A stretch of 64,000 nt of DNA from a bacterium (GCA_963662285.2 CAXXMV010000003.1:288001-352000), one strand, 5' to 3'; positions 9,181-57,752 are shown, counted from the stretch's first letter. The notes: generated by a model not told the origin, from the sequence alone. Made by a program: numbers and translations.

Positions 9181-9486
9181 TAAATTATCTCCAATCAAAA
9201 AAAATATGTTATTGCGTTTGTCTTTGAATTACTTTATTTTATATCCAAGACAAGAGATTGGCTACTCGACTAGCGGTTATACTTTATCTAAGTTAATCTA
9301 GTTTGATGTAAATAGCTGATTTTTAATTAAAATATGCGAAATTATTTGAATAATTATTGATATTAATTGCATTTTGAAATAATTGCATCTTATAAAATAC
9401 ATTATTACTACGTTATGAATCCGGGAAGGTTCTTGATTAGGCAAAATATTTATAAGTATATTCATAACATCAGAGGAGAAAACGCG

Positions 9487-11112
9487 ATGAAAGTTAACTG
9501 GAATATCGAAAAACACGCGTTATGTTTGCTAAAGTCATCTTTTTTGCTGTGCGCTTTACTGTTAATAATCCAAAGCGTCACGGCGGGGGGGGCGTTTGAT
9601 AATTTCCTCAAAGCGGAACGAAATGGCTGGCAGGCTCAAAAAGCCTTTCAAAAATGCATGAATTTTACTTATGGTTGGCTGGGACATCGCGACCCGCGCT
9701 CAGGCTTGATTCCAAGAAATCTTAACAGGGATAATTTTTGGAACGCGCAGGATTCCGCCGCCGATAACTATCCCTTCATGGTGCTCACTGCATCTTTATT
9801 GAACCGGGAGTTGTTCAAGGGAACCATGCTTGACATGCTGGAGAGCGAAATCATCCGAACTAATCGTCTGGATAACCTGCCTGACGATTTCGATTTCGCC
9901 ACTCAAAAATTCCGTCTTGCCGAAATTGATATGAATCACTTAATCTTCGGCGGTTCTGAATATGTAAAAGATGGATTGATACCATTAACCGAATGGATGG
10001 GGCCAAGCCCCTGGTCGAGCCGTATGATCGGCATCCAGGATTCCATCTGGAAACATGCCGCCATCAATACGCCTTATGGTAAGATTCCCTCGATTAATCA
10101 TGAAATTAATGGAGAACAATTGCAGGTCTTATGCCGTTTATACTGGATGACTGGCGATGAACGTTATAAAGAATGGGCTTTCCGCTTAGCGGATTACTAT
10201 CTGTTGGAACATCTACCAACCGATAATGATAACCTGAGCCTTGACGATCATGGCTGTGAAATCATCGGCGGCTTGGCAGGTGGATATTTCCTGGCGGCTC
10301 ATACTGACGCTGAGCGACGCGAAAAATACCGCGCCCCGATTCACCGCCTGCTGGATCGCATATTGGAAATAGCTATCAATGAAGACGGCCTGTTCCACAT
10401 GGTGGTTAATCCCCAAACTGGCGAAGTAAAAAAAGAGGAATTGACCGACAATTGGGGATATGACTATAACGCCGTCCTTAATGTCGCGCAATTGGATGAT
10501 GTAGACCATTATTACGAAGCCATGCGCCATGTATTGGATAATATTAATAAATACGTCTATTACCCCTGGGAAAACGGTGGTTCCGATGGATACGCCGACT
10601 CCATAGAAGGCGGATTGAATCTGCTCAACCGTATTCCCAATCCCAAAGGTTTCCAGTGGGTGGATGACAGTATGGAAATCCTACTGGCCAAACAGCGTGA
10701 AGATGGAGTTATTGAAGGCTGGCATGGCGATGGCAACTTCGCCCGAACCGCTCTGATGTACGCCCTATGGAAAACCCAAGGCGTTCATCTGGTTGATTGG
10801 AGAGCCGATTTGGCCTTTGGCGCTGTTGTGGATCAAGGTTCGCTATATCTATCGATCCAAGGCGATTGGAAATGGTCCGGTCTAGTGAAATTTGATATCG
10901 CCCGGCACAAGGTCTATTTTAAGTTGCCATCCGATTATCCAAGAATTAACCAATTCCCTGAATGGTTTACAGTTGACGCAGGTAAATCTTATAAAGTATG
11001 CATCAATGGCGCGGAGGAAATAACCAAAACTGGCCAGGAACTGATAACAGGTTTGCAAATATCAACCAAAGCGGGCGTTCCCGTAAACATTAAAGTCTCG
11101 CCAGCTGAATAA
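9487..11112 (+). CDS. Secreted hypothetical protein, probable (alpha/alpha)6 glycoside-hydrolase-like fold
   Basis: AGGAG RBS before ATG 9487, signal-peptide-like hydrophobic stretch, RLYWMTGDERYKEWA helical hairpin motif; family not assigned. Confidence 0.6.
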   Translation: MKVNWNIEKHALCLLKSSFLLCALLLIIQSVTAGGAFDNFLKAERNGWQAQKAFQKCMNFTYGWLGHRDPRSGLIPRNLNRDNFWNAQDSAADNYPFMVLTASLLNRELFKGTMLDMLESEIIRTNRLDNLPDDFDFATQKFRLAEIDMNHLIFGGSEYVKDGLIPLTEWMGPSPWSSRMIGIQDSIWKHAAINTPYGKIPSINHEINGEQLQVLCRLYWMTGDERYKEWAFRLADYYLLEHLPTDNDNLSLDDHGCEIIGGLAGGYFLAAHTDAERREKYRAPIHRLLDRILEIAINEDGLFHMVVNPQTGEVKKEELTDNWGYDYNAVLNVAQLDDVDHYYEAMRHVLDNINKYVYYPWENGGSDGYADSIEGGLNLLNRIPNPKGFQWVDDSMEILLAKQREDGVIEGWHGDGNFARTALMYALWKTQGVHLVDWRADLAFGAVVDQGSLYLSIQGDWKWSGLVKFDIARHKVYFKLPSDYPRINQFPEWFTVDAGKSYKVCINGAEEITKTGQELITGLQISTKAGVPVNIKVSPAE

Positions 11113-11165
11113 GTCCGTGTTGATGAGTTATACAAAAAGTATTAGTTCTGAATAAATATTGAACG

Positions 11166-11205
11166 ATATGTACTTGAAAGGTTTGAAAATCTTTCAAGTA
11201 CATAT
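11166..11205 (+). terminator. Hairpin, probable intrinsic terminator
   Basis: ATATGTACTTGAAAG-loop-CTTTCAAGTACATAT perfect 15-bp stem after the stop at 11112. Confidence 0.6.
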
Positions 11206-11211
11206 TTGTTA

Positions 11212-11288: not shown

Positions 11289-12299
11289 ATGTTTATTAAG
11301 GCAATCACGATGGTAAAGTTGAATTATTCTTATAAAAGTTTTCTTATAGTAACTGGTGGATTGCTTTTCACCATTATACTGTCTGGTTGCGTGACTACCG
11401 GGGGTTCTATTCAAGCCAATTACTCAAACATCAGCCAGTTGGAAGAAGCCGATAACTTGTTTGATAATGAGAAATACCAGACCGCTTTGCTGAAATATTC
11501 CAGTTACGTATTTTCTCCATTCCCTAATAAAAAGCATGAGGATTACGCTTATTACAAACTCGCCTTGTGTCATTATCTGCTGGGGCAATATTATGACGCC
11601 CAAAAAACAGCAGAGATTCTAGTTCAAACTTATCCCAAATTTGAATATAGCGAGCAAGCCAATGATCTGCTGGCCAAGAGCGATAATAAGATCAATGAAC
11701 GTAAAATTGAGTTCTCCAAACAATGGAATGAGCTATTAAAGGAAATCGAAAAAACAACTCAACTTGCCGCGCAAAATCCTGATAGTGCTGAGCATCAGTT
11801 CAAATTGGGCGATCTTTATTGGGATGCGGGTAAGTACGGTGACGCAGTCCGGCAATATGAAAAAGCGGCTCAGCTGGACAAAGCCTATTTAGAAAAAAAA
11901 AACTTGCGTACCAGGGTTCGCATCGATCAATCTGGTGAATTCCTGATTCGCGATCCCATGTATCAACACATAGAAAAGCCAGCCCCTGTCAGGGTTACGC
12001 AGGTTCGGCGGGATCGCATCACCCGTGAAGACTGGTTGGGTGAGTATGAAGCGTTGAGACTGAGCGGTTATGTTGAGAATGATGGTCTCTATGATGTAAA
12101 TAATGTGCAGGTGGAAATAGCCATCTATGATTTTTTTGATACAATTCAGGAAACTAAACTGGTTAATATTGGCGCTCTGCAAGCTGGCGGACGAAGACCC
12201 TTTACCGTCATGTTCAACCAATACCGTGATATGGCTATCGATATAATGAAATATACTACTGAGATTTTTTTTGATGAATCTGCGGCGGCCCGGCGATGA
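11289..12299 (+). CDS. TPR-repeat lipoprotein with C-terminal FxLYD-like beta-sandwich (candidate pilotin)
   Basis: Lipobox LSGC, TPRs (AYYKLALCHYLLGQY; HQFKLGDLYWDAGKY), C-terminal LSGYVENDG...VQVEIAIYD...LQAGGRRPFTV. Confidence 0.75.
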   Translation: MFIKAITMVKLNYSYKSFLIVTGGLLFTIILSGCVTTGGSIQANYSNISQLEEADNLFDNEKYQTALLKYSSYVFSPFPNKKHEDYAYYKLALCHYLLGQYYDAQKTAEILVQTYPKFEYSEQANDLLAKSDNKINERKIEFSKQWNELLKEIEKTTQLAAQNPDSAEHQFKLGDLYWDAGKYGDAVRQYEKAAQLDKAYLEKKNLRTRVRIDQSGEFLIRDPMYQHIEKPAPVRVTQVRRDRITREDWLGEYEALRLSGYVENDGLYDVNNVQVEIAIYDFFDTIQETKLVNIGALQAGGRRPFTVMFNQYRDMAIDIMKYTTEIFFDESAAARR

Positions 12300-13468
12300 T
12301 TTTGATGGGTTATTTTATGAAACATATTAATGGAAGATATTTTCACGAGCATAATACTATGAGAAATCCCCTTATGTCATGCAAAAGATTTACTGCTTCG
12401 TTTTTGATAATCGGGATTCTACTTGTTTTTTCTTTCTCCTCTGATGCGCAAATAAAAATCGCACGAGATCCAAAGTTTGCCTTGCCAGCCAATGCAATGA
12501 CAGACTTGATTAAACATTATGAAGATAAACCTGATGGACCCTATCAGGTGATGGTTGAAATTATTATCTTCGAAGTCTTCATGCGTAATGAAGATAAAAT
12601 CGGATTTGTTTACAATATTCTGGGGGAAGTCGGCGAATTCCGCGGTAACAACCTTAATGGTCTTGCTTCCACCGAAAGTGATCTTAGCGTTTTAGGCAGC
12701 GGCGGTAGGGATTTATTATTGCCATCAGGTTTGAATATTGTATCCAATATATTTGAAAGTAACGATGAAGACCGGGTTGAAGCGGTTATCCAGGCTCTTG
12801 CAGAAGATCAGACGGTTCAAGTCTATTCTAATCCCAGGCTTTTAACCCTGGATGGCGTACCAGCCCGTTTGGAAACCGGTGAAGAGATCCCCTTTCTTGA
12901 ACGTAAAAATCTTGGTACCAGCGAAACCTTTTCAACTAATTTCAGAAAATCCGGCGTTACTATGCAGATTACGCCCTTTGTGAGATTCACTGAAACTGAC
13001 ATCCAAAGAAAAAAACCTTATATAATCGTGGACTTGGATGTCAGCCTTTCCAGCATTTCCCGTTATCGCGAAGAAGAAGGTTTTACTCAACCTATTGTTG
13101 ATGATAGGAACTTAACAAATCGTGTGACATTAAAGGCCGGACAACGAATTATTGTCGCCAGTCTTTACCGGGATACTCAAGAGAATACCATGCGCGGCAT
13201 TCCCATTTTGAAGGATCTTCCCGTTCTGGGTAGATTATTTAAGGGGACCACTAATATGAATCAGATTTCGCAGTTATTCATTATGGTGAAACCTGATCTT
13301 TTTGATTATTCCGGAGAACTATTACAAAAAACAGGCGTACTGAATCCTGAACAGGAATCCAAGGGATTTAGAAAGATTCTGGAAAAACGCACCCAGGCTC
13401 TTGATGGGCGTTCAGGACCTTTTGAAGAATTTAGATCACTATTTCTTGATCGTAATACTCCGCGATAA
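12296..13468 (+). CDS. Secretin family protein (type II/III secretion secretin domain, no N-domains)
   Basis: QVMVEIIIFEV, SNPRLLTLDGVPARLETGEEIPF, GVTMQITP, GIPILKDLPVLGRLF; true start probably 12359 or 12374. Confidence 0.85.
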   Translation: MILMGYFMKHINGRYFHEHNTMRNPLMSCKRFTASFLIIGILLVFSFSSDAQIKIARDPKFALPANAMTDLIKHYEDKPDGPYQVMVEIIIFEVFMRNEDKIGFVYNILGEVGEFRGNNLNGLASTESDLSVLGSGGRDLLLPSGLNIVSNIFESNDEDRVEAVIQALAEDQTVQVYSNPRLLTLDGVPARLETGEEIPFLERKNLGTSETFSTNFRKSGVTMQITPFVRFTETDIQRKKPYIIVDLDVSLSSISRYREEEGFTQPIVDDRNLTNRVTLKAGQRIIVASLYRDTQENTMRGIPILKDLPVLGRLFKGTTNMNQISQLFIMVKPDLFDYSGELLQKTGVLNPEQESKGFRKILEKRTQALDGRSGPFEEFRSLFLDRNTPR

Positions 13469-14609
13469 ATATAGGATATTCGAATTTAAAATCATGATTG
13501 TAAACCTGGTTAACCTCATAATAAATAATTCAGCTAGAAGAACTCTGGTTAGAAATTTCTATTTAAGCATATTTATATTATGCCTGTTTCCTCTGATCTC
13601 TTCAACTCAGGATATTAGTCCGGTAATTCAGATATCGGCTAATGTTTATGTATATCGATTGGATGGAGAGAAACAACTTGGTTTATTCTATCAATACAAC
13701 AGGACAAGCGGATCAGTTCAAAATAGTGATGTGTTTCTTCATGGAACTGAGAATGTTAATGAACAGGCCATCGGTGCGCTCGATATATCCGGCAGTTTCG
13801 CCACTCTCAAATATGGATCAATTGATTACAACTTAAAGACTGCAATTGAAGAAGGACACGCAACTTTAATAAATCATCAGAGAGCCATTGTCTCTGACGG
13901 GGAACATTTTTCATTCTCTGCTGGTGAAAAGGTTCCTTTAACCAAAGTTGTAATGAAGGGTAATAATATAACCCTAGATACTGAAGAGCGGCCTGTAGGC
14001 ATAAAACTAAATGGAACTCCCCGTATTTTTCGCGGTGATAATATAATCATGGATTTGGAAATTGAATCCAGTGAAATCACCCAAATTAATACTTTCGACC
14101 GTGGTGACGAAAAAAGATATACTCTTCCGGTTATTGCCAAACGAAATATAAAAACTGTGGTAATCGTTCCCTCGGATCGTCCGGTTTATATAGGTGGTTT
14201 ATATACGGATACTACTGGAGATTTAACCAGAAAAGTTCCAATTATTGGTGATCTGCCGATAATTGGCTTCTTCTTAAGAGGATTCAATAAAAGCCGGCGC
14301 CAGTCTGAAACTATTTTTAGAATTACTCCTGTTATTAAAAAGCCCGGTGAAGGTCTGGATATTGGATCATCTATTTTTGAAGAACTTTTGCAACCGGAAG
14401 GCGACTTATCATTAATTCAACAAACCGGCGTCCGTGAAAAAAGTACTGAAGCGAACAGTTCATCAATAATTACGCCTGCAACATCCACCCTTATGGTTCC
14501 TTCACCGCTGATTAAGATGGCTACTGAAGTTGTGAATCAAAAAAAGCCTGAGACAAATAAATCCACCGGGGCAAATAAGAAATCATCTAAAAGGTGGAGT
14601 AATAAATAA
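13401..14609 (+). CDS. Second secretin family protein (no N-domains)
   Basis: VIQISANVY, AGEKVP, GIKLNGTPRI, KVPIIGDLPIIGFFLRG, ETIFRITP; true start probably at or after 13494. Confidence 0.82.
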   Translation: MMGVQDLLKNLDHYFLIVILRDKYRIFEFKIMIVNLVNLIINNSARRTLVRNFYLSIFILCLFPLISSTQDISPVIQISANVYVYRLDGEKQLGLFYQYNRTSGSVQNSDVFLHGTENVNEQAIGALDISGSFATLKYGSIDYNLKTAIEEGHATLINHQRAIVSDGEHFSFSAGEKVPLTKVVMKGNNITLDTEERPVGIKLNGTPRIFRGDNIIMDLEIESSEITQINTFDRGDEKRYTLPVIAKRNIKTVVIVPSDRPVYIGGLYTDTTGDLTRKVPIIGDLPIIGFFLRGFNKSRRQSETIFRITPVIKKPGEGLDIGSSIFEELLQPEGDLSLIQQTGVREKSTEANSSSIITPATSTLMVPSPLIKMATEVVNQKKPETNKSTGANKKSSKRWSNK

Positions 14610-14623
14610 TTCCGGTTAACCAA

Positions 14624-14648
14624 GTAGGGGCGCTCCTTGTGGGCGCCC
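14624..14648 (+). repeat. GTAG-type REP hairpin
   Basis: GTAGGGGCGCTCCTTGTGGGCGCCC; related sequences at 45166-45208 and 47229-47393. Confidence 0.6.
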
Positions 14649-14674
14649 GAAATTTCCTACTCCCTCCATATAAA

Positions 14675-16987
14675 TCATTGCAATGCTGGTGGATCAACTT
14701 TTTCTCCCTTGATCTGCGCCAGTTGTTCATCTTCTGAATAAGTTCCATAAAACGATGCGTTGCCGTCCAGCCATAGATAAAGCCGCTTCATTTCATCATT
14801 ATTCAATTTGACCATATTTCTCTTAATATGATTACTGATAATCCCAGTGAGAGGGCTATTATCAGAAGGCATCTCTTCAGGCAGCGTAACTGTTTGACGA
14901 ATGCTGCTATCGCCCCACTCATACCATTTAACATAAGGTTTAAGAGTATGATACGATACTAAAAAGCCGTCTTTTTCTGCTCCGCAAAGATTGGGGCGCT
15001 TTTCATTCTTTCCTTTGCCGTCATGGCATCCAACGCAGTGCTGGTCGAGAATCGGTTGAACCAGACGCGAATAGTTCCAGGGTAGGGAACCATCAGGTCC
15101 CGGTTTTATCTGAGAAGGTTTTCGTTTAAATGCGATGGGCTGAGTATTCCTGGCAACCGTTCCCGGAGTTTCATGGCACCCGACGCAGCCCCGCTGTTCT
15201 CCCGGTTGAAGATAAATCAGGCTGCGCATCCCCTGAACCGCCTTGCCATTATCATCTATGGCTTGGAATAATATTGGCTTACTGGCGGGAACGCGGAAAA
15301 AGGCTGAACCATCTTTTTCGACCGGAACTGAACCAAGCAGCATTCGGGCTGATTCAGCATTAGCGTAACCCAGTCTCGGTTTGTTAGCTACATGAGTCTC
15401 GCTTTTTGGTAATATCTGAAAGATGTTTAAGGTTTTAATCTTTCGGGCGCCGGATTTTTCATAAAGACTGGTATTGATATCTGAAAGTAATAATTCCCCT
15501 TCATTTTCTAAATTTGAGTCCAAAGCTGAAGGTACAACCGGAGGAACGGTTCTCGGCGCCAGAGGTATGGGGTACATAGAGGAGATGCCTTCTTCTCTAT
15601 AAAGCAGTTCCATATTGCCGAAGCGGTCAAACAGGTATAGACCGGTAGTGGTATCTTCATCAACATGCGGACCCATTCCCGGCAGTGGATCGAAACTGAA
15701 GGAGACCAGATAATAATTCTCTGATAATGGCCAGGGGCTATGGAAATAACTGTTAGGCCATCCATTGGCTTCTGGAAAACAGACTTCAGGGGTCAGTAAT
15801 TCCAATGAGCTGAAATCATCTTCTCCAGTCTTTTTGTGAATCTTAATTTTTGTAGGATCAACCACCACCAACGAACCGCCTACATCTGCATGATGCGCTC
15901 CAGCCACAAAAACGATTTTGTTTGATCCTGGAATCGCTCTGGGCTGGTAACAGGCGTTTAGATTCTTGGTGTAATTTCCAAACAGTATTGATGGATTAGA
16001 ACCATCAGGATTGCTGATCCATAATCCATGGAAATTGGCTGCAGAGCGGTCTATGTAATCCCATCTTGTATAGACGATGCGTCCATCATGGAGCACGCTG
16101 GGGTGCCATTCATTGGTTTCATGGAAGGATAGCGTCTTGATATTTTGACCATCACTCTTCATGCGATGCAACGTATAGCAGGGCAGAGGTTCCCAGGGAT
16201 TATGGCATCTACCGAAGCCGCCGCGCCGCGTCGACATGAATGCAACATCCCCGCCGGGTAATTCGCACGGATCGAAATCATCGTATATTCCGTCAGTTAA
16301 TTGCTTGAGATTGCCGCCATTACAGTCCATGGAGTATATATGGAAACATTTTCGCTGGTCTGAATAATAATCCGGCTTTTGTTCCGCCCGTTCTGCGAAG
16401 GCGAAATAGATAGACTTGGCGTCATAGGATAGTGATAGAGTGGTGAAATTGCCTTTGGGCAAGCGATGCTTAGTCAGATCGCTGGTTTGCATGGAGTAAC
16501 CCGGATTATCCAGTTTATAAACTCCGCCGCCAGAGATGTCTCTGTAATCATAAAAATAACCCAGATATTCATGGAGCATTTGGCAGATAAAACGGCGGCG
16601 TTTGAGGAAAACAATTGGCGATGATTCAATTAGAGGATTCTGGAAGGATATATCACGGATTAACCATCGAATCTGCTTGTACAAAGCAAACCGTTCGGCT
16701 TCATCCATAGATTCAAGATTATTGATCTGTTTTTTATAGATTTTAAATAACTCAAACTCTATTTCCAGATTCAACTCGCTTGATTCCGATAAATCAACCA
16801 GGAGTTTTTCGCATCTTTCCAATGATTCATAAATAGCTATTAAATCCGACGAGGAGCGTCCTTTTCTTTCTTCCTGTAATTGCCAATCATATTCAATGGC
16901 TGATCTGAATTTATCAGAAATGGAATAACAAATCTGGCAAGTTACAAAACAGCAGCAAGCAGTGATGAGTAGACGTGAAAACCGCAT
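14675..16987 (-). CDS. HzsA-related secreted protein (TolB-like propeller plus hydrazine-synthase-alpha middle domain, two CxxCH heme motifs)
   Basis: Signal peptide, DDFDPCELPGGDVAFMSTRRGG, LGSVPVEKDGSAFFRVPA, two CVGCH motifs. Confidence 0.8.
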   Translation of the reverse strand: MRFSRLLITACCCFVTCQICYSISDKFRSAIEYDWQLQEERKGRSSSDLIAIYESLERCEKLLVDLSESSELNLEIEFELFKIYKKQINNLESMDEAERFALYKQIRWLIRDISFQNPLIESSPIVFLKRRRFICQMLHEYLGYFYDYRDISGGGVYKLDNPGYSMQTSDLTKHRLPKGNFTTLSLSYDAKSIYFAFAERAEQKPDYYSDQRKCFHIYSMDCNGGNLKQLTDGIYDDFDPCELPGGDVAFMSTRRGGFGRCHNPWEPLPCYTLHRMKSDGQNIKTLSFHETNEWHPSVLHDGRIVYTRWDYIDRSAANFHGLWISNPDGSNPSILFGNYTKNLNACYQPRAIPGSNKIVFVAGAHHADVGGSLVVVDPTKIKIHKKTGEDDFSSLELLTPEVCFPEANGWPNSYFHSPWPLSENYYLVSFSFDPLPGMGPHVDEDTTTGLYLFDRFGNMELLYREEGISSMYPIPLAPRTVPPVVPSALDSNLENEGELLLSDINTSLYEKSGARKIKTLNIFQILPKSETHVANKPRLGYANAESARMLLGSVPVEKDGSAFFRVPASKPILFQAIDDNGKAVQGMRSLIYLQPGEQRGCVGCHETPGTVARNTQPIAFKRKPSQIKPGPDGSLPWNYSRLVQPILDQHCVGCHDGKGKNEKRPNLCGAEKDGFLVSYHTLKPYVKWYEWGDSSIRQTVTLPEEMPSDNSPLTGIISNHIKRNMVKLNNDEMKRLYLWLDGNASFYGTYSEDEQLAQIKGEKVDPPALQ

Positions 16988-17948: not shown

Positions 17949-19662
17949 TCATGCATTCTTTTGAATTTTTTTCCACGAATCGCGTAGAGTTGCGGTTCTG
18001 TTGAAAACCAGATTATCCTGAGTTGAATCCTGATCAACGCAGAAATAACCCAATCTTTCGAATTGACAACTGTATCCCGGTTCTACTGAAGCCAGTGATG
18101 GTTCGAGATAGCATTCAGTTAAGGTCTTCAATGAATCGGGATTAAGGTTATCTTTCCAATCAGCGCCCTCTGCAACAGCAAGAGGATTCTCGTTCGTAAA
18201 GAGATAATCGTATAGATTAACTGTGGCTTTGACGGCATGTTGAGCCGATACCCAGTGGATGGTTCCTTTAACCTTGCGGCCATCGGGAGCATCTCCTCCA
18301 CGGGTGGCGGGATCATAGGTGCAATGAATTTCCACAATCGCACCGTTATCATCTTTCACCACGTCCTGACAGGTCAAGAAGTAGGCGTAGCGGAAACGCA
18401 CTTCACGCCCGATGCCCAGACGGAAGAATTTACGCGGCGGATTCTCCATGAAGTCGTCGCGTTCAATATATAGTTCGCGTGAGAATGGAACTATGCGTGA
18501 ACCGGCTGTTGGGTCTTCGGGATTATTTATAGCGTCAAGTTCATCAACTTGATTTTCCGGGTAGTTTGTTATAACAACTTTAATTGGATCCAACACGGCC
18601 ATAACGCGGGGAGCGATCTTGTTGAGATGTTCGCGCAGGCAATGCTCCAGCTGTTGGATTTCAATAGTGCCATCGCTTTTACTGACTCCAACGCGCCGGC
18701 ATAATTCAAGGATGGCTTCCGGTGTATAGCCGCGACGGCGCATTCCACAGAGGGTTGGCAGTCTGGGATCATCCCAACCGCTGACGCAGCCTTGTTCGAC
18801 CAGTTCCCGCAGATAGCGTTTGCTGAGAACGGTATAAGTAAGATTCAAGCGTCCGAATTCATACTGTTTGGAAGGGAATATGCCCAGCTGTTCGATGAAC
18901 CAATCGTAAAGTGGTCTATGATTGGCGAAACCGATGTCACAGATGGAATGAGTCACCTTCTCGATAGAGTCGGATTGACCATGGGTCCAATCGTACATCG
19001 GATAAATGCACCATTTATCACCCGTGCGGTAATGATCGGTATGAATGATGCGGTACATCACCGGGTCGCGCATGTTGAGGTTGGGATGCGCCATATCTAT
19101 TTTAGCGCGCAGGGTTTTTGATCCATCGGGGAACTCACCATCACGCATACGCTGGAAAAGGTCGAGATTCTCTTCTACAGAACGGCTGCGGTAGGGGCTA
19201 TTTTTACCCGGAGGGGTTTCCCGTTTTGCCATCCTCTCCAAAACCGGCGGTGCCGCGATACTCACGAATCTCGTCTTCGTTGAGGTCGCAGACGTAGGCC
19301 GCGCCCTTTTTAATCAGTTCAACCGCCCAGTCGTAGAGTTGATCGAAATAATCTGATGCGTAATAAAGCCGGTCTTCCCAATCGAAGCCCAGCCACTTTA
19401 TATCTTTCTGGATGGCGTCGACGTATTCGGTCTTCTCTTTAGCCGGATTGGTGTCGTCGAAACGCAGGTTGTATTTTCCATTGAACGCTTCCGCAATTCC
19501 ATAGGTAATGCTTATCGCCTTGGCATGACCGATATGAAGATAACCGTTCGGCTCAGGAGGGAAGCGGGTATGCACGCGACCCTCATGCAGTCCGGCTTCA
19601 ACATCGGCTTGGACGATATCTCGGATAAAATTGGAAGGGGATTTAATTTCGTTATCTGACAT
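17949..19662 (-). CDS. glnS: Glutamine--tRNA ligase, split by a +1 frameshift near 19224-19227
   Basis: [14 protein letters not shown] (HIGH) in the 5' ORF; [29 protein letters not shown] in the 3' ORF; removing one A of GGCAAAACGG joins them. Confidence 0.93.
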
Positions 19663-48891: not shown

Positions 48892-50034
48892 CTATTTGAT
48901 AGACCAATCATCAACAGCAGTTTGTAATGTGTTTATTACAAAAATGCTGTCGCTGGCATTGTGGGAACTGAAAAAGGCATAGGCCTGATCGTCAGTCACT
49001 TCAAAAGCGCGGCAGTGGCTGCTGAATGCATCGGTTCCAGTTATATCATTGAGGTCGCTATTGGTGATAAACGCTACGGGAACGCTATTGTTTTCAACTT
49101 GCAATCCATCTGATGAAAGTTTATATATTTTTAAACCAGCGATATTACCTAAAATATACAGATACGGTTCGCCAGAGGCTACGCCTGCGATTTTTACGCT
49201 TACTGCATCTGCATCTTCCGCTTCACCAGGCTCAAAGACCAAACTTACCAGTAATGTTTCTACGCCTGTTTCTGGATCAAGTACGTAAGCCGAAGAAGTC
49301 TTGGTCAATGTATCTCCTTCGCAGTAATAGATCAGGTCTTTGCCATCGATATATTTGACCTCGAAATTACGCAACCGGGCGAGTGAGGTAAAGAATGTTC
49401 CGCCATCCTGCCAATCCGTATCCAGTATAAAAGGCATTCCATCTTCGGCTAACGAAGCTGTAACTTTATAGCGGTGAATCTTCATGCGGTTTTCGCCGCC
49501 GGAATAATGATTGGTGTACAGATAGGTTCCATCATGATTGAAATTCAAGGTGTCACAGGCTGGGAGTACATCAGCTTCGAGCCAGCTGTCTGATTCGTTG
49601 CCAATATTGTAATCATCGGGATATCCGGTGAATGTGACTTCTTCTTGACCACCATTGCCGATGACCAGACGGGTTCCAAATTGCGAACTTCCCTTGGGTA
49701 ATCCATACATGTGATTGGTAGCCCAACGGTGCGCAACCTGATCTGCGTTATCGGCGTCTCGCAACTCTTGAACTACATATTGCGAGAAAAATGCATTAGC
49801 GTTGGAGTCTGATGTGTATAAATAAGTCTGGTCAGATGTTGAATCCGTTGTACTGGGTCCGCCGAAACTCCAGTAATGAGGTGAAGGACCATGGGTTTCC
49901 TCATCCATTACTTCCACATATTTCAGGTTTGGAGCATTCCACCAATATGACTTAGCTGCTCCATAGTTACAAATAAATCCAAGAAATAAAACACCCCATA
50001 AGCTGCGAAGAAAAATTGATTTGTTTAATGCCAT
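48892..50034 (-). CDS. Secreted beta-rich (propeller-like) hypothetical protein with C-terminal TAVDDWSIK tag
   Basis: AGGAG RBS, signal peptide, FNHDGTYLY and VTDDQAYAFF blade-like segments. Confidence 0.7.
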   Translation of the reverse strand: MALNKSIFLRSLWGVLFLGFICNYGAAKSYWWNAPNLKYVEVMDEETHGPSPHYWSFGGPSTTDSTSDQTYLYTSDSNANAFFSQYVVQELRDADNADQVAHRWATNHMYGLPKGSSQFGTRLVIGNGGQEEVTFTGYPDDYNIGNESDSWLEADVLPACDTLNFNHDGTYLYTNHYSGGENRMKIHRYKVTASLAEDGMPFILDTDWQDGGTFFTSLARLRNFEVKYIDGKDLIYYCEGDTLTKTSSAYVLDPETGVETLLVSLVFEPGEAEDADAVSVKIAGVASGEPYLYILGNIAGLKIYKLSSDGLQVENNSVPVAFITNSDLNDITGTDAFSSHCRAFEVTDDQAYAFFSSHNASDSIFVINTLQTAVDDWSIK

Positions 50035-50135
50035 TATCTTACTCCTGTTAATGATGTATTTGAATCATACGACAATATTATAATAAGATAACAAGTATTT
50101 TGTTACTAGGATTAGAAGGTCATAATCAGTATTAA

Positions 50136-51521
50136 TTAGTTCTTAATAGCTGTTGCAGCCTTCAATCTATTTACAATCGAAAAAGCGATAAAATTACTCG
50201 CCACACCCACGACCAGCCCATCAATTCCGGTGGAGGCGGAGAATAGTTTGTTCCATAGAATCATTCCAGTTATACCCGCCAGGGTTCCAGTTATAAAACC
50301 AAGTTTTGAAGTCCTGAAGCCAAGCAGCACAGCGGCCAGAGGGATCAATATGATAGGCGCCCAGAAGTTGTATGCATAAAGCAAAATATCAAGTACGCTC
50401 TCGATTGACACTGCGAAAATTATCGCTGATATTCCAACTAACATATTGGTTAGTTTGGCAAGGTTCAGTTCGGCTCTATCTGATAGTGGCTTGCGGCGCA
50501 ATGGTTTTACGATATCGTTGATTAATCCGGAAGACGCTCCATTCAAGAATGAGTCAGCCGAAGACATTACTATAGAGATCACACCTGCTATTACGATACC
50601 GCGTAATCCGATGGGAAGCGCATTTTGGATTAAATAGGGCATAGATAAATTTGGATCGAGTTCAGGATTTAAGGTCAGCGCCACGAGTCCGATCAGGCCG
50701 GTAATGGCGAAAAACGGGATGGAGAAGAGTCCGCTCAGCAGAGTCCCACGGGCGGTTTCGCGCGAATTTTTACCTATAAAGAGCCTTTGTACATATGGCG
50801 GCACTAATGTTTCACCTAAAACAAATGTCAGGAAGAGCGAGATAAGAGCGATCCAGGTCATGCTGTCGCCGGGAATCGATAAATGACCAGCGGGCGCTGA
50901 TTGAATAATCGCTTCGATTCCACCGGCCTGGCTGATTCCAAAGAATAAAGTTAGCGGGATGCCGATTCCCAGCACAAGAAATTGGATAACATCGGTCAAG
51001 ACAACAGCACGCATACCTCCAATGGTCGAGTAGGTAATAACGATGCCGCATCCAATCAGAATGCCCCAGATTTCGCTGATATTTAGAAAAACGTTGAAGA
51101 TTTTCCCCATTGCGCCGACTTGAGCGCCAACGATGCCAGCACAGAGGAAAACTGAAAATATTCCGGTTACGATCTTTCCAAATTTCCCATAGGCCGGTTC
51201 CATTATGTCTCCGGTAGAAATGAAACCGGGGAAATTCTTGGTTCTGGGAGCGATATATTTGGCGACCAGAATTTCCTTCAAACTGAATCCCCAAAGGGCG
51301 ACGATATTGACGATGCCAAAGCGGAAGACTTTTTCAGCATTGCCGATGGAGAAGCCTCCTCCAATAAACGAAGCCGAGAGCGTAGCGAATATTATCCATG
51401 AAGAATAGGATTGATGGGATACGGAGAAATCGCGTAAATTTTTTAAGCCTTTTCCACTATATATTCCAACACTGAGAATGAGAAGTAAATAAACGGCGAC
51501 GATGCCATGATCAATTTGCAT
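50136..51521 (-). CDS. Sodium:solute symporter family protein (PutP/PanF-like subgroup)
   Basis: TLSASFIGGG, YSTIGGMRAVVLTDVIQF, VMSSADSFL, many TM helices. Confidence 0.9.
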   Translation of the reverse strand: MQIDHGIVAVYLLLILSVGIYSGKGLKNLRDFSVSHQSYSSWIIFATLSASFIGGGFSIGNAEKVFRFGIVNIVALWGFSLKEILVAKYIAPRTKNFPGFISTGDIMEPAYGKFGKIVTGIFSVFLCAGIVGAQVGAMGKIFNVFLNISEIWGILIGCGIVITYSTIGGMRAVVLTDVIQFLVLGIGIPLTLFFGISQAGGIEAIIQSAPAGHLSIPGDSMTWIALISLFLTFVLGETLVPPYVQRLFIGKNSRETARGTLLSGLFSIPFFAITGLIGLVALTLNPELDPNLSMPYLIQNALPIGLRGIVIAGVISIVMSSADSFLNGASSGLINDIVKPLRRKPLSDRAELNLAKLTNMLVGISAIIFAVSIESVLDILLYAYNFWAPIILIPLAAVLLGFRTSKLGFITGTLAGITGMILWNKLFSASTGIDGLVVGVASNFIAFSIVNRLKAATAIKN

Positions 51522-52066
51522 AGGTAATATTTCCTTTGGTTAAAGTCTTAAAAGTGTAACTGGAGGTGAATCAAGATCAAGTGTTGTCTTGGTTTGATGA
51601 GATTGTATAAAGTCTGATTGGGGATTTCGGGGGATTTGATATGTCGTGAATTATTATTTTTAATAAATTGATGAAGTTATAGATAAATTAAAATCTAAGC
51701 ATAATAATAAATTATTTTTTATTAAAAAATGTCAAATATTTTAATAAAAGTTTATTTTTAAAATAAATTCATATTATAAAAAAAATCTAATCTATTAAGG
51801 TCTAATATTATAAATTAATGGTTAAAAATGATATTATTTTTGGTAAAATACTTTATAGTCTGATCTATTTTTGTTTCAACTGAAAACGAGTTGTCAATAT
51901 TTAGGAATCAAGATATATTTAGACAAATATAGTTATCGTTAATTAAAATTAAATAAATATCTAAATTTACGTCAAGAACTAAATAATAAGTAGTTCTATA
52001 CATTCATGAGAGGAAATATTTAGTATGATGAAAAACAATAAAATATAGTTGTGGAGGTATTTTATT

Positions 52067-52789
52067 ATGGAGAAGACTGATTCCGTCTTTCACTCTCAAT
52101 CGGATTACAAACTCATCGTGGATATTATTACAAAAATTGTTAACTCACGTCTAAGAGATAATCCAGAACTGGCAAAAGATATTATCTCTGAAAGTTCCTT
52201 ACGAGCATGGTTATCTATTAGTTCTAATCCGAACATAAAAGATCCATTGGCGTATGCAGCAAGAATTACCTTCAACACAATGAGTTCAATGCTGTCGATA
52301 AACACAAAGATCAGAGACGCACATTGCTCATTTGATAATGATAACAATGAAGAATCTTATCAAACCTTCCATAAGATGTTCATCCCGCACGATAATCCAT
52401 TAACTTATTTAGAAACAAGAGAATACATAGCGGGTTTGGCGAGAATCATTGGCATAACTCATTCTTTTGTACATAATCAATGCACTCCTGAAGAAACACT
52501 GATTTATCAGGAAATAATCCGTAGAAAAACAAACATAACTGTATTAGCCGAAATAATGGATTTATCAGAAGATGCATTAAACCAGCGTGTATTCAGGTTT
52601 ATGAGAAAAATTTCCGATCATGTCGAAAATGAAGTTAGAAATAATTCTCATTTATATGAATTACTCACAAGGATATTAAAGAATGAGGCAATACCTTTTT
52701 ACAGATTTGTCACTCTTCTTCTTAGAGTGGTAAAAGAAAATGGTTTAGAGACAATAGGTTTTGCCTTAAAGTCTCTAATAGGAGGATAA
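52067..52789 (+). CDS. Divergent ECF-type sigma-70 factor with C-terminal extension
   Basis: GGAGGT RBS; region-2-like AKDIISESSLRAW...PLAYAARITFN; region-4-like TPEETLIY...ITVLAEIMDLSEDALNQRVFRF. Confidence 0.65.
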   Translation: MEKTDSVFHSQSDYKLIVDIITKIVNSRLRDNPELAKDIISESSLRAWLSISSNPNIKDPLAYAARITFNTMSSMLSINTKIRDAHCSFDNDNNEESYQTFHKMFIPHDNPLTYLETREYIAGLARIIGITHSFVHNQCTPEETLIYQEIIRRKTNITVLAEIMDLSEDALNQRVFRFMRKISDHVENEVRNNSHLYELLTRILKNEAIPFYRFVTLLLRVVKENGLETIGFALKSLIGG

Positions 52790-52818
52790 TTCGTATTAAT
52801 AATTATTGTTGTAAACGC

Positions 52819-53067
52819 TCAGTGATCTATTAATGATCGCTGAGCGTTTTTTTTTGCATCTACAAATGCAGATTGCAGGGAATCTTCTATACCCCATAAC
52901 AAACCAAACATATTGATATTTCTTTTCAAATCATCTCGAACCATTTGATCATCACCGCATTTATCCAAAATTTGGTCAGGAGCAATAGATTCACCTTTAT
53001 TTAATCTGTTTACGTATTCTCCAAAAAGTTTTGCAGCAATTTCTATTTGCTTTTCAGTCAGATTCAT
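52819..53067 (-). CDS. Small helical hypothetical protein (82 aa)
   Basis: GGAGGG RBS; FGEYVNRLNKGESIAPDQILDK...DDLK. Confidence 0.65.
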   Translation of the reverse strand: MNLTEKQIEIAAKLFGEYVNRLNKGESIAPDQILDKCGDDQMVRDDLKRNINMFGLLWGIEDSLQSAFVDAKKNAQRSLIDH

Positions 53068-53261
53068 TATTCCCTCCGCGAATATTTTTATCCAATGGCG
53101 AAAATATTTTCTCTTTTATAGAATATAGAGAAGTGTTTGAACATTTTTTGACAAAAAAAATGAACTTTTTTTATCTTTGCCATTGTAAACGTAAGAATAG
53201 ATAAAGTAATATTCATTGCTTATCAGGAATATTTTTTATCTTTTGTAGATGGAGAATACAC

Positions 53262-53903
53262 ATGAAATTACCTAGACCAAGAGATTTAGGAGAAAAATTA
53301 CGTGTATGGAGAGAAAAAAAAGGACTATCTGTAAAGGATGTGGTTAATAAAAGTAAAAATTCTGATGTTTGCCAAAAACCATTTGCTGCGGGAGATGTTT
53401 CTAAATGGGAGACGAAGAAATCTCTACCTACATATAGAAGGCTAGTTAGAGATATCTTTCCTGCATATGAAATTGATGACATCTCTGAGTTCCTTTTAGA
53501 AATTACTCCAGAATATGATTCAATAAATGATGTCATTCATATTACAAGAGACAAAATTTCGATTAAAAATGATCCCGAACTTTGTACTAGAAGTCTTTAT
53601 ATTGATCCACATTACATCCAGAAATATCCATTGAGAGTTGACTTCTTGTATATCGAATCAAATAAATGCAGTGAATGGAGACAACATAAAGGTTGTGAAT
53701 ATTTGCTGGTCACGAAAGGCCAGTTGAATGTGATGATTTCAGAATCTGAAGATAACATAAATGCTATATCCTATGAATTAAATGAAGGCGACGCAATCGC
53801 ATTCTCAGGTCATTTATTTCACAAACTTCAGGTTACTAAAGGTGAAAGAGCTAAAATTGTAGTAGGAAGGCCTGTGTGGAGTGGACGAGAAGTTGAACCA
53901 TAA
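53262..53903 (+). CDS. XRE-family HTH transcriptional regulator with cupin domain
   Basis: LGEKLRVWREKKGLSVKDV, VSKWETKKSLP; cupin H.G.EYLLVTKG...LNEGDAIAFSGHLFH. Confidence 0.85.
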   Translation: MKLPRPRDLGEKLRVWREKKGLSVKDVVNKSKNSDVCQKPFAAGDVSKWETKKSLPTYRRLVRDIFPAYEIDDISEFLLEITPEYDSINDVIHITRDKISIKNDPELCTRSLYIDPHYIQKYPLRVDFLYIESNKCSEWRQHKGCEYLLVTKGQLNVMISESEDNINAISYELNEGDAIAFSGHLFHKLQVTKGERAKIVVGRPVWSGREVEP

Positions 53904-54259
53904 TAAAAGAAAAGCATTATGTGACAAAGCGAGAGTTGCTCTGAATGAGATTAGAATCATACAATGCGGTAGGTATACACGGCTTTGAGTCCGAATAGAT
54001 ACTCGATGTATTTCTCTCCGTAATAACACCAGCCCAGGATGGTTAAATCGGCGAATAAGACTAATCCTAATAATACTATAAAAACATAGCATTTTATAAA
54101 CATTACGATTATTCGCTTTGTCTTCCATAATACAAGCGCATGGTATATTATCATATACGTAATATAATGAATTGGTTAACATATACTTATTTATATTCGG
54201 AACTCCGAACTTCTCAAATTCTTGATTAACATATCCTCTTGATTTTTCGAGGCAGATGA

Positions 54260-55087
54260 ATGAGCGATATTTCAAATATTGAGCAGTATAAAACAGGTTG
54301 TTTATATCAGGTTCCCCTGGGTGAGATAGAGGCTGATCCCAATCAGCCCAGAAAATTCTTTGATAAAAAAGAATTGAACAAGTTATCTCAATCGATAAAG
54401 AATAAGGGCGTACTGCAGCCAGTTATTATCAGGGTTTGTGATAATCAATTGCTTCTGATTGCTGGAGAGCGGCGCCTGCGGGCCTCAAAAATTGCAAGAC
54501 TTAAATCAATTCCGGCTATTGTAGTCGAGGGCGACTCGGCGGAAATATCACTAATCGAGAATATCCAGCGTGAAGACCTGAATCCTATCGAAGAAGCTGA
54601 AGCCATTGCTAAACTTATTGAAATTAATGGATATAAAGATAAAGACCTCGTTCCAATTCTAGGTAAAGCCAAATCAACCATCAGCGAGATGAAGAAGTTG
54701 AATCTTCTGCCAGCCAGGATTAAAGACCAGTGCCGCAAGAGCAATCAATGGTCGCGCAACGTTCTACTGGAAATCGCCAAACAACCCACCAAAAAGAAAA
54801 TGCTCGAACTCTTTAATGAGGTGAAAAAGAATAATCTCAAGGGAAGAGAAGTGCGCACCATCACCCGTGGCAGAAGCCGGAAACGTAATAAAGCCTCAAT
54901 CATCGTCGATAAACTGCATAACGTTTTCAACTCCTTCACAGAATTGAAATTTGATGAGATTGAAGACGAGCAGAAGAAAAATCTCCGCACTGAACTAAGG
55001 GATATCAGAAAAAAAATCGATTCCATGCTGGATAATTTGAAAACTCAGGACGCTCCTGAAGAGTTGTCTTTATTTGATGATTTGTAG
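54260..55087 (+). CDS. ParB/RepB/Spo0J family protein (orphan, no adjacent parA)
   Basis: DPNQPRK, GVLQPV, LIAGERRLRA CTPase motif, LIENIQREDLNPIEEA, HTH LGKAKSTISE. Confidence 0.92.
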   Translation: MSDISNIEQYKTGCLYQVPLGEIEADPNQPRKFFDKKELNKLSQSIKNKGVLQPVIIRVCDNQLLLIAGERRLRASKIARLKSIPAIVVEGDSAEISLIENIQREDLNPIEEAEAIAKLIEINGYKDKDLVPILGKAKSTISEMKKLNLLPARIKDQCRKSNQWSRNVLLEIAKQPTKKKMLELFNEVKKNNLKGREVRTITRGRSRKRNKASIIVDKLHNVFNSFTELKFDEIEDEQKKNLRTELRDIRKKIDSMLDNLKTQDAPEELSLFDDL

Positions 55088-55193
55088 GAATCAATTAATT
55101 GTGCGCCTGGTTGGATCGAAGGTGATTGCAACAAGGTCTGACAGAATTCCGTGGTCTTGCCCTTGCCACTTGTCAAATCTGGCAAATTTATTA

Positions 55194-55230
55194 AAAAGGG
55201 TGAGCTAAATATCAAATTCAGCCCACCCTT
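55194..55230 (-). terminator. Terminator-like hairpin, homologous to 57859-57897
   Basis: AAAAAGGGTGAGCT...AGCCCACCCTT. Confidence 0.55.
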
Positions 55231-55260
55231 AATAGAAATTTTTGTCTTGGATTCAGGAGA

Positions 55261-57752
55261 TTAGAATAAAGACCATTCCTTAACAACTGTTCCTGTATCC
55301 TCGTAGTTGAACAATGCTTCTCCATTGAATTGATAGGAATATTTAGCGGTCATAGTCCAATACGGTCCGCTTGCTCTATCCACCAGTTTGTAAAAATCGG
55401 TATATCCATATATAGAGTCGCCGGACGAGTTGAATGTGTAGAATTGGTATGGCGCCAGTATGTGATCGACTAAACTGATCAGAATTTCTTTGCTGGTTGA
55501 ATCGGTTTGGGGATAATCTTCTTTTACGGAGATCATAGTGAGAAACCATGCGGCATCGTAGGCCATATAATCATAATCGGTTGGTTTGATGCCGATAAAA
55601 TCTTCCAAGACTTTTCGATAGGCTTTTTCAAACATACTAAATAAGTCCTGTGAAACGGTTCCAGGTGAAAAGGCGGTGAAATTGGTCTCTAGAGCGAAAG
55701 CAAAAGATGCTGGATCGTTGGCGATAGACGAGTTTTTGGCTAATCCATCTCCACCGAACCAACGGACGTCTCGCAATATTGAATCCTCAGGAATAGCGTT
55801 GAATAAGCCAACCGCTTCATCCAAAGATATAGCCAGGACTGCGGTTTTTTCTGTTCCTGAAATTGCTGCGGCGGATGTGATTCCATCTGTAATTAATCCG
55901 ATGGTCCCGGTGAAATCAGTAGTATCAACGCTATATGAAATGCCCTCGGCGCAGGTTCCACCGATTGCTTCGAATTTATCTTTGAAAAGCGAATATAAAT
56001 CGGCGCCATAATTATCATCGCGGTATACGGGTTGAACAAACTCAATCCCTAAATCTTGGAGATATACAGCTAAGGCATTAGCCAGTTTTTCGTTATCTAA
56101 AGCAAGACGGAATATGTTATCATCGACGGCCAGATCGAGCGATGTGCTGCTGGGTGAGATTAGGATTAGATCATTCTCGTTGGCGTAGGTTGCTACGGCG
56201 CTTAGTTCGCTGCTTTTCAATGGGCCGACGAACAATTCAACTCCCTGACTGTGCAATTCCTGGATTTTTTCCAGAGCAATTTGCGGATCAGAGGCCGTAT
56301 CTGCAACAACAATATCGATTGATGAATTCTCGGTGAAATTACGTTTTAGATAATGAGTTAAATCCGAAGACGCCATATCCAGAACTTTTTGAATTTCTAA
56401 ACCCATTGTGGAGTTATCGCCCGTTAAAGGCAGCAACGCTCCAATTTTTACCATGCGGTCGGTATACAATGGAGGATACTCATAATAGTTATACGTTTCG
56501 TATAAGTCCCCCAGTTCTGGTTGTGGCTTTTGATAGGAAGCAATCAGAGTCCATCATAATGGCCATTAGATTCCATGAAACTATGGAATGCTGTAACGCC
56601 ATTTGAACTATCTCCGTTAACATCGAAAACCAAAAAGTTGTTGACGCCAAATACTTCATAGGAGACTTTAATAAATTCTTCTTTGACATCAAAAACATCG
56701 GCCATCAAAGCGACGAAAGAAGCAATTTGGAAGGCATCATAAACAAAAGTAACAATATCTTCCTGTAATATTTCATCGGTCGATTTGTAGATTCGAGTCA
56801 AAAGGTTTTCGCATGTAGGAACGTGCGGATAAAAAGGATGGTATAAATCCTTAACAGAAGCAGCTGCAAAGGTGAAATTGGTTTGCAGCGCGAACGCTTT
56901 AACATCTTCGTCATTGGTGAAAGCAGAAATATGAGCGGCGTCATCATTATTAATCCACCGGGTTTGTTTAAGAGCGTCATGTTGGTAAGATAATTTGACA
57001 ATAGCCCCGATTTCATCATATGAGATGGAGATAACTGCTGTGCGGGATGAACTATCGGCGTTGATGCTCTCTTCAACAACCTGGTTGAGTTGTTGAACCG
57101 TGTCTGCAAAATCAGTTTGTTCGGGTGAATATTTAACTTCTCCGGCAATGGTTCCCCCTGCAGCAACCCATAAAGGCTTAAAAGCATTGGCGTATTCATT
57201 ACCATAGGTATCATCACGGAACAAAAGCGCTACGGATTTATGATCATGCCTTTGCAAGAATTCTGAGACCGCTGTGGCTTTTTCAATATCATTCATGTGC
57301 ATCCGGAAAATCATATCGTCAATGGCCAATGAAGGGGATGTACTGGTTGGCGATATGATCAAAATATGATTTTCATCAGCAAAAGGTTTGATTTTCTCTA
57401 CGCATGAACTTGAGAACGGGCCAATGATGACCTGAATGCCTTGATCATGCAATTGCTGGATCTTCTCCAGTGCCACATCTGGATTGGTCTCTGTATCTTC
57501 AGCGACCAATTGAATATTCATATCAGAAAATAAACGTTCTATGTCTGCTTCAGCAATATCTAAAACAGCCTGCGTTGTTTGGCCCATGACGGATAAACCG
57601 CCGGTAAAGGGCGCCAAAACTCCAATTTTAACAATTTCCTGGGCGAATAAATTCGGGGTGATCGTCACGAGAAGCAACATGATTATGCCAAACAAAAAAA
57701 ACGATTTAATTTTTGTTTGACATTTGTTTGAGTGCAATAGTTTGTTATGCAT
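55261..57752 (-). pseudogene. Double periplasmic-binding-protein (LIVBP/Peripla_BP_6) protein, split by a 1-nt deletion near 56554 (pseudogene or sequencing error)
   Basis: ORFs 56544-57752 and 55261-56469 are collinear with the two halves of 57937-60459; the shifted frame reads WTLIASYQKPQP...YEYPPLYTDRM, matching the paralog linker. Confidence 0.8.

Follow-up and report, generated by a model that had tools for sequence, protein, structure and literature searches.

Secretins are understood as homo-oligomeric ports of the outer membrane (OM) whose N-domains tie them to the motor of a type II secretion system (T2SS), a type III secretion system (T3SS), a type IV pilus (T4P) or a phage assembly apparatus. 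Here we describe a locus that is at odds with this standard picture. On the plus strand of a 64-kb stretch of DNA from an uncultured bacterium (GCA_963662285.2, CAXXMV010000003.1:288001-352000; 64,000 nucleotides, hereafter the window), three close-packed genes, here called L, A and B, occupy 3.3 kb (11310-14609 from their likely starts) and encode a lipoprotein with tetratricopeptide repeats (TPRs) and two secretins that consist of the core domain only; no motor accompanies them, and the arrangement has been stable over deep evolution. That L-A-B is one operon building a secretin-type OM pore without an inner-membrane motor is a proposition that we regard as evenly balanced between right and wrong.

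Canonical secretins are reported to depend on a lipoprotein for OM targeting (PMC3276575). GspD/PulD/XcpQ and PilQ, with the pilotins PulS/AspS and PilF/PilW/Tgl, have the core fold and a motif near the end of the core in common with A and B; the canonical GspD and PilQ, however, carry N0-N3 (plus AMIN in PilQ), dock to a platform and form homo-oligomers, whereas A and B have no N-domains. In the Tad system the lipoprotein TadD holds the last residues of the secretin RcpA in its TPR groove, a contact described as needed for assembly (PMC10499894; PDB 8odn, Pseudomonas aeruginosa). The likeness lies in a short secretin that is encoded with a TPR lipoprotein, as A and B are with L (PMC10499894). 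RcpA, in contrast, belongs to a tad operon with an ATPase, a platform and pilins and has N-terminal periplasmic domains, and neither is true of A and B; moreover, RcpA-TadD has one secretin, whereas L-A-B comprises two paralogues and a lipoprotein with an additional FxLYD sandwich.

The GspD of mitochondria in Naegleria and other protists is described as a C-domain without N0-N3 that still forms pores, and it co-occurs with a divergent core paralogue, GspDL, in which the authors see an indication of an elaborated pore (PMC8134430). That system, however, is eukaryotic and organellar and keeps homologues of GspE, GspF and GspG together with separate GspDN N-domain proteins, and the sections of that report drawn on here describe no pilotin-like lipoprotein, in contrast with L; A and B are likened to it by description only. 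In the rhizobial-type T3SS, according to the passages of PMC3574062 that bear on it, the core is a protein of its own (RhcC1/RhcC2), as in A and B. There, and in a split GspD of the genome analysed here, the N-terminal half is a separate gene of the same machine, whereas A and B are both cores, not halves, and no N-domain partner was found nearby or elsewhere in the genome. The split T2SS core of the same genome also keeps N3, unlike A and B, which have neither N3 nor an N-domain neighbour.

Judged from sequence, the parts of the module are of known kinds, namely the secretin superfamily and a TPR lipoprotein. What differs from the described systems that we found is the combination of paired core-only paralogues, a TPR-FxLYD lipoprotein, the absence of N3 and the lack of a motor. 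Literature searches found no description of an L-A-B module, with most subscription journals outside the search, so that this is no proof of absence; the genome paper on Hinthialibacter, a name carried by some of the relatives reported below, mentions Tad pili and flagella and contains no occurrence of the word 'secretin'.

Two secretin cores and a TPR-FxLYD lipoprotein

Three open reading frames (ORFs) fill positions 11289-14609 on the plus strand of the window (11289-12299, 12296-13468 and 13401-14609). From the likely true starts, read from the sequence, they encode L (11310-12299, 329 amino acids), A (12359-13468, 369 amino acids) and B (13494-14609, 371 amino acids), all of which are predicted to be exported, L by a lipobox and A and B by signal peptides. 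PF00263 (Secretin) is the only Pfam family matched by A and B (111.1 and 104.7 bits, respectively; cut-off 27.5), and the same scan returned no Secretin_N (PF03958), N0 (PF21305), STN, AMIN, BON or T2SS-T3SS_pil_N (PF13629) in either protein. On the 600-position NCBIfam GspD model (TIGR02517) A covers positions 335-589 and B positions 394-589, with scores (113.7 and 78 bits; cut-off 351.35) that leave both outside the GspD family. Both likewise fall outside PilQ (TIGR02515; 99.7 and 81.1 bits, cut-off 284.35) and score far under the curated cut-offs of the NCBIfam MshL and SctC models. Nor do they belong with the Tad secretins RcpA/CpaC, as PF13629 and BON are missing and the proteins stand apart from the Tad references in the tree described below.

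Alignment with solved structures locates the point at which the two proteins begin. A profile of 34 A-type sequences aligns to residues 310-570 of XcpQ, beginning at the last helix of N3 and the first strand, QVLVEA, while the B-type profile, built from 25 sequences, covers XcpQ 318-576 and PulD 336-601. Because the profiles align to XcpQ from 310 and 318 onwards, A and B are whole secretin cores, including the gate region, that begin where N3 ends. The signal peptide of A spans residues 1-30 (...LLVFSFSSDA/Q, the slash marking cleavage); in an AlphaFold2 model (mean pLDDT 66.4, with low confidence at 82-148) a single helix (46-56) precedes the core (about 62-315), whose strands start at residue 63, about 32 residues past the signal peptide. 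All 40 Foldseek matches to this model at E <= 0.001 are solved secretins, RcpA included, and RcpA is also among the sequence matches of the A and B profiles. In B the signal peptide extends to about residue 39 (...LFPLISSTQ/D) and the core, by alignment, starts at residue 44 (VIQISANVYVYRL), about 5-7 residues further on. The first-pass annotation, which was made from the sequence alone, had placed the cores about 30 (A) and about 5 (B) residues after the signal peptide and had proposed that N0-N3 are absent; both statements are borne out, as no N-domain was detected by Pfam, the GspD model or the XcpQ profiles.

The two secretins keep the motif VP..DIP..G..F, as working secretins do, and share about 24% identity over the core (G000:C3:301788-302336 compared with A). 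They differ in what follows it. The C-terminal extension of A is conserved, comprises two helices (330-348 and 356-363) and ends in the motif PFE.FR.LF.DR..P, while the tail of B comprises about 80 residues that are rich in Ser, Pro and Lys, poorly conserved and basic at the end.

The gene in front of A and B had been described in the first-pass annotation as encoding a TPR/FxLYD-like lipoprotein, and that description is correct on both counts. L matches TPR families in Pfam, and its residues 256-311 score 32.6 bits against the FxLYD domain model NF038353, above the cut-off of 23, which places the protein in that family. Its N-terminus (MVKLNYSYKSFLIVTGGLLFTIILSG/C) ends in the lipobox LSG/C, and the lipobox cysteine, Cys27, is conserved in at least 90% of 23 L sequences; the lipoprotein is of OM type. 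The AlphaFold2 model (pLDDT 82.1) shows TPR helices spanning 34-202, comprising a module of three TPRs (about 31-132), a long helix of 40 residues (114-155) and a second TPR pair that extends to about 202, and then a linker and an FxLYD beta-sandwich (227-323). Structural matches are to BamD, MamA, SycD-class chaperones, YbgF and other peptide-binding TPR proteins; the Z scores for SycD, YbgF and BamD, 12.8-14.4, are of a size often seen with helical repeats. The sandwich, for its part, resembles Ig-like domains and a DUF1425 protein.

With its lipobox and TPRs L has the make-up of the TPR-type pilotins (PilF/PilW/Tgl/TadD), and the proposal that it acts as a pilotin fits the lipobox, a TPR module of the peptide-binding type and the tight coupling of the genes, features that may reflect such a role. 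The companion suggestion that L replaces the missing N-domains finds no support, since its C-terminal domain is an FxLYD/Ig-like beta-sandwich and not the alpha/beta fold of an N-domain. As regards the curated pilotin models, PilW (TIGR02521) gave no match to L at E <= 1 and Tgl (NF033762) gave 13.2 bits against a cut-off of 225, which leaves L outside both families. Identity with BamD/YfiO was considered and rejected, L scoring 31.3 bits on TIGR03302 (cut-off 81.4); the best BamD-like match elsewhere in the genome (C2:79249-79623, 40.4 bits) is also under that cut-off, and on the YbgF model L is again below the cut-off. A single complex prediction run with mature A and mature L (score 0.00, mark 0.32) counts neither way.

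Conservation of the trio

A search with A retrieved 30 close proteins of 307-401 amino acids that match PF00263 only, after which the matches dropped to E 9e-13; with the B profile there were 40 close PF00263-only proteins before a drop to E 8e-28. The source names of some of these relatives are Candidatus Hinthialibacter sp. or Candidatus Omnitrophota/Omnitrophica bacterium. At the level of loci, two adjacent secretin genes are present in all 25 related loci, and L precedes them in 24, the exception being cut by a contig end, which agrees with the first-pass view of a stand-alone operon and shows the three-gene unit to be conserved. A scan of contigs with alignment A4 yielded only 18 relatives, all already in the set. 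The genes are tightly packed: the median gap is -2.5 nt between L and A and 2 nt between A and B, and gaps of 60 nt or less occur at 20 of 24 (L to A) and 22 of 24 loci (A to B), values for which starts were set by a simple rule and of which those from one GC-rich locus are unreliable. Within the phylum of the window the L profile found its target in 26 of 35 genomes, distributed by family as 17/19, 4/4, 2/2, 1/1, 1/1 and, in family f5, 0/7.

In a tree of 107 secretin cores, built by a quick method and with long branches, A and B are united in a group with a support of 94, and the Tad, PilQ and GspD references fall outside it. This group divides into an A branch (33 rows, support 99) and a B branch (24 rows, support 94), save for the pair of one deep genome. 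A and B appear to be old paralogues, never found apart. The conservation data also bear on the possibility that the short genes are an artefact or a relic: one secretin broken by a frameshift, a duplicate in decay or a gene of the pIV type of filamentous phages. Short gene length is the only observation in favour of such an origin, to which we attach a negligible probability: each of the two genes encodes a signal peptide and a whole core rather than a fragment of one canonical secretin, both are intact in 25/25 related loci and in the diverged lineages described below, and the window contains no phage genes. Longer proteins were also searched for fusions with A, and no L-A or A-B fusion was found, which is weak evidence; the 56 matches were all canonical secretins with Secretin_N, AMIN, BON or TPR domains, and the best of them, at E 4e-37, was the closest longer or fused relative found. 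A frameshifted or relic secretin is ruled out by the conservation data.

A diverged form of the trio exists outside the phylum. When 1.84 billion representative proteins were searched with the L profile, the best 150 matches comprised 32 short, full-length proteins and 118 long multi-TPR proteins. The remoter short proteins, at 19-24% identity to L, still have its lipobox, its two TPR parts and its sandwich, and the three that were scored on the FxLYD model all pass the cut-off (32.2, 29.9 and 26.7 bits). A metagenome scan with five diverged L-like proteins identified 28 loci. In 25 of them the gene immediately downstream of the L-like gene encodes a short secretin, and the other 3 have no room for such a gene. 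A second secretin comes after the first in 16 loci. At locus L107, 510 nt remain in which no second secretin was detected, and elsewhere the contig breaks off inside the first secretin or shortly after it. Among 401 genomes searched, the L-like gene is present in the 26/35 of the phylum and in 4/366 outside it, where three of the four have L followed by two secretins and the fourth is cut by a contig end. PF00263 alone was found by Pfam in 8/8 diverged-trio secretins that were scanned, and in a second tree each of the two diverged-trio secretins forms one group, with support of 96 in each case. In an atlas look-up, one diverged L-like protein clusters with named members that are mostly Candidatus Hydrogenedentota, which is a lead only; wherever this analysis links diverged L-like proteins to the Hydrogenedentota, the link is this cluster label. 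The arrangement of L, A and B is not due to chance, and the trio has been passed on as a unit through at least two deep lineages.

That A and B travel together does not of itself mean that they form one pore. Both could build separate homo-oligomeric pores with different jobs, in cargo or in gating, each piloted by L, and be kept together solely by the shared assembly factor. Consistent with this unlikely, though not far-fetched, alternative is that every solved secretin ring matched here is made of a single secretin protein, that A and B retain only about 24% identity over the core, and that their different C-terminal extensions could recruit different partners. The overlapping or abutting stop and start codons, however, are typical of subunits made in a fixed ratio, and both secretins are present wherever the DNA sufficed to contain them (25/25 related loci, 16 metagenome loci and 3/4 outside genomes), locus L107 being the exception.

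The surroundings of the trio were also compared. In the window a terminator-like hairpin (11165-11206, plus strand; a 19-pair stem and then a T-rich tail, recognized by consensus match only) sits between L and the upstream gene for an exported protein, which ends at 11112, and suggests that L-A-B is its own transcription unit. Among public sequencing runs, two from one study contain this DNA and may represent the source sample, and no RNA run was listed. Downstream, a GC-rich inverted repeat read directly from the sequence (GGGCGC ... GCGCCC, 14628-14648) lies between the stop of B and that of a convergent gene (14675-16987, minus strand). This repeat may be a shared transcription stop; it is not listed by the terminator scan and no T run follows it. 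The convergent gene encodes an exported protein of 770 amino acids with CxxCH-like cytochrome c motifs and a hydrazine-synthase-alpha middle domain (PF18582, 94.4 bits). The upstream gene (9367-11112, plus strand) encodes an exported 581-residue protein with weak GH88/GH127-like similarity only (E about 0.04), and in 8 of 18 same-family loci it is the gene immediately before L, in the same orientation. Together with TrxR, MlaE and MlaF, this exported protein makes up the flanks of the trio in the window, and flanks of this type recur only within the family. The neighbours in remoter relatives are triose-phosphate isomerase, leucine-biosynthesis-like genes, DUF58 and a DsbH-like protein.

Diverged trios have surroundings of their own. 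A gene of about 130 amino acids, weakly Skp/OmpH-like (23.1 bits, under the cut-off), precedes the L-like gene in 18/28 metagenome loci and 3/4 outside genomes, and lnt (apolipoprotein N-acyltransferase) and murJ come after the second secretin in five diverged loci. By tblastn none of the three (Skp-like gene, lnt, murJ) adjoins the trio in the window or at any of the 25 related loci, and the sole match was a murJ on the opposite strand at locus L054, about 3 kb distant. In diverged loci that include L142 (genome G070), L143 (G238), L096, L101 and L104, a conserved protein of about 870 amino acids, with no family match, is encoded divergently upstream. The neighbours of the trio are housekeeping or envelope genes.

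Further features of the window lie away from the trio. A glutaminyl-tRNA synthetase (17949-19662, minus strand) is split over two overlapping ORFs, 19204-19662 encoding the N-terminal 152 amino acids with the HIGH region and 17949-19265 the other 438, in which tRNA-synt_1c is matched from profile position 107; the split suggests a frameshift or an assembly error. At 50001-56000 the GC content falls to 0.33-0.40, compared with about 0.44 elsewhere, and the stretch, in which a ParB-like gene (54260-55087) is accompanied by small ORFs that match no family, may be a mobile or foreign segment.

Motors and other secretins of the genome

The first-pass annotation had noted the lack of ATPase, pilin, platform and phage genes around the trio, and this holds for the whole window, as none of its 42 scanned ORFs encodes a T2SS or T4P ATPase, a pilin, a platform protein or a phage protein. 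The window likewise contains no gsp cluster genes (GspE, GspF, pseudopilins) and no pilMNOP. The genome has 11 matches to PF00437 (T2SS-E type ATPase), none of them on the 435-kb contig that carries the window, and eight secretin-domain genes. Annotation of eight genome loci identified three T2SS-like clusters, an MSH/T4P-like cluster and a Tad cluster, each with its own secretin, the Tad secretin, with PF13629, being in the tad cluster on contig C6, and a PilB/PilT/PilB set. Homologues of A and B are not found in such T2SS or Tad clusters, the related and diverged loci lying elsewhere. Across lineages the neighbours of the trio change and are never pilins, platforms or ATPases, with the exception of genome G232. 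On contig C8 (L064:9423-12596, minus strand) a secretin of 1057 amino acids has a long TPR N-terminus with a weak PilW-like match, Secretin_N and a core, and it adjoins a PilM-PilN fusion of 693 amino acids.

In one T2SS cluster (GspE, F, G, J, K and M-like) the secretin is split (C1:564048-566765; L057:13049-14506 and 14521-15765). The first part, of 485 amino acids, has N0 and three Secretin_N domains but lacks a core; the second, of 414 amino acids, has N3 and the core and covers GspD model positions 276-595. The N-domain protein is a separate frame of about 483-580 amino acids in 29/35 genomes of the phylum, many of which have a core frame of about 400 amino acids beside it. This split secretin shows that the lineage of the window tolerates core-type secretins. 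One literature search on split secretins found no description of a split secretin in a bacterial T2SS.

A genome with several such machines could, in principle, use A, B or both as OM ports in trans for a type IV filament machine, another protein supplying the periplasmic domains. The split T2SS secretin, conserved in the phylum, is a precedent in that it pairs a core with N-domains in trans. An orphan ATPase on contig C2 (L063:9652-12291, minus strand), a TPR-GspE/PilB-type fusion of 879 amino acids beside a sigma-54 response regulator, also counts in favour, no platform, pilin or secretin having been found near it, as does a PilT-like gene that in G232 follows the trio at a distance of about 1.5 kb. 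Each T2SS, T4P-like and Tad cluster found, however, has its own secretin, and all 14 Secretin_N matches of the genome are inside those other secretin genes, so that neither a machine without its own port nor a spare N-domain protein was found by annotation of the genome and the Secretin_N search. The varying neighbours of the trio, G232 aside, also speak against a port in trans, as does the N3 domain that the split T2SS core keeps and A and B lack. We consider this explanation improbable.

A possible motor-free pore

The evidence above is best explained by a pore that works by itself. L would be a dedicated assembly and targeting lipoprotein, a pilotin in the style of TadD/PilF, whose TPR module, of the peptide-binding type, would grip a C-terminal segment of A, B or both, as TadD grips RcpA; the best candidate for this segment is the conserved helical extension at the C-terminus of A. 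The two secretins would then form a gated channel together, in the simplest case as a mixed ring, a step that we propose because the paralogues were never found apart and their genes are coupled. As A and B are without N0/N1, such a channel could not dock to a platform of the GspC/PilP type, and for this reason it would work alone. Its cargo may be a component of the surface or envelope that is exported, or the channel may allow the passage of large substrates; the reading of the locus as an 'export or uptake pore' in the first-pass annotation is a guess. The envelope genes that adjoin the trio, Mla in the window and the Skp-like gene, lnt and murJ at diverged loci, suggest a constitutive envelope function rather than an accessory function in virulence or pili.

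The same neighbours would suit a structural role in which A and B are OM proteins of the secretin fold that form no channel and instead serve as envelope anchors or scaffolds, and the long, disordered, basic tail of B could bind other layers of the envelope. Such a role is highly improbable in our view, as the core is kept in full, with both the VP..DIP..G..F motif and the part that corresponds in alignment to the gate region.

It should be emphasized, however, that several observations weigh against a motor-free L-A-B pore. Known secretin gates are opened by a pilus, a pseudopilus or a needle, and the opening of a gate without a motor is left without an explanation. We infer the mixed A-B ring and its binding by L from co-occurrence and gene coupling, and the signal peptides and cleavage sites of the three proteins were read by eye. 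The structural matches of L are those of a generic TPR protein, with no known pilotin, TadD included, among the 50 matches listed. The trees neither match A and B to the secretins of the diverged trio nor show one common duplication. The PilT-like ATPase near the trio in the outside genome G232 is a possible motor component, and the absence of the module from all seven genomes of family f5 means that it is not essential for that lineage. N3 is required for the assembly of the GspD pore according to PMC8134430, which cites earlier work for the statement, and an N3-less core may, for that reason, need a further factor.

A wider version of the motor-free pore, in which L, A and B form a hetero-oligomeric ring that is assembled without N3 and serves as a housekeeping OM conduit of several little-known phyla, is a tentative proposal about which we have more doubt than confidence; the lineages that it would cover, those of the Hinthialibacter/OLB16 type, the group linked to the Hydrogenedentota by its atlas label and others, are named with the same reserve. 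Were it true, the conduit would be a first among bacterial secretins in two respects, its two subunits and its independence of a motor. The module bears on the minimal unit required for secretin assembly, on the existence of mixed rings and on gating in the absence of a piston, and it would add a component to the envelopes of uncultured, polymer-degrading phyla.

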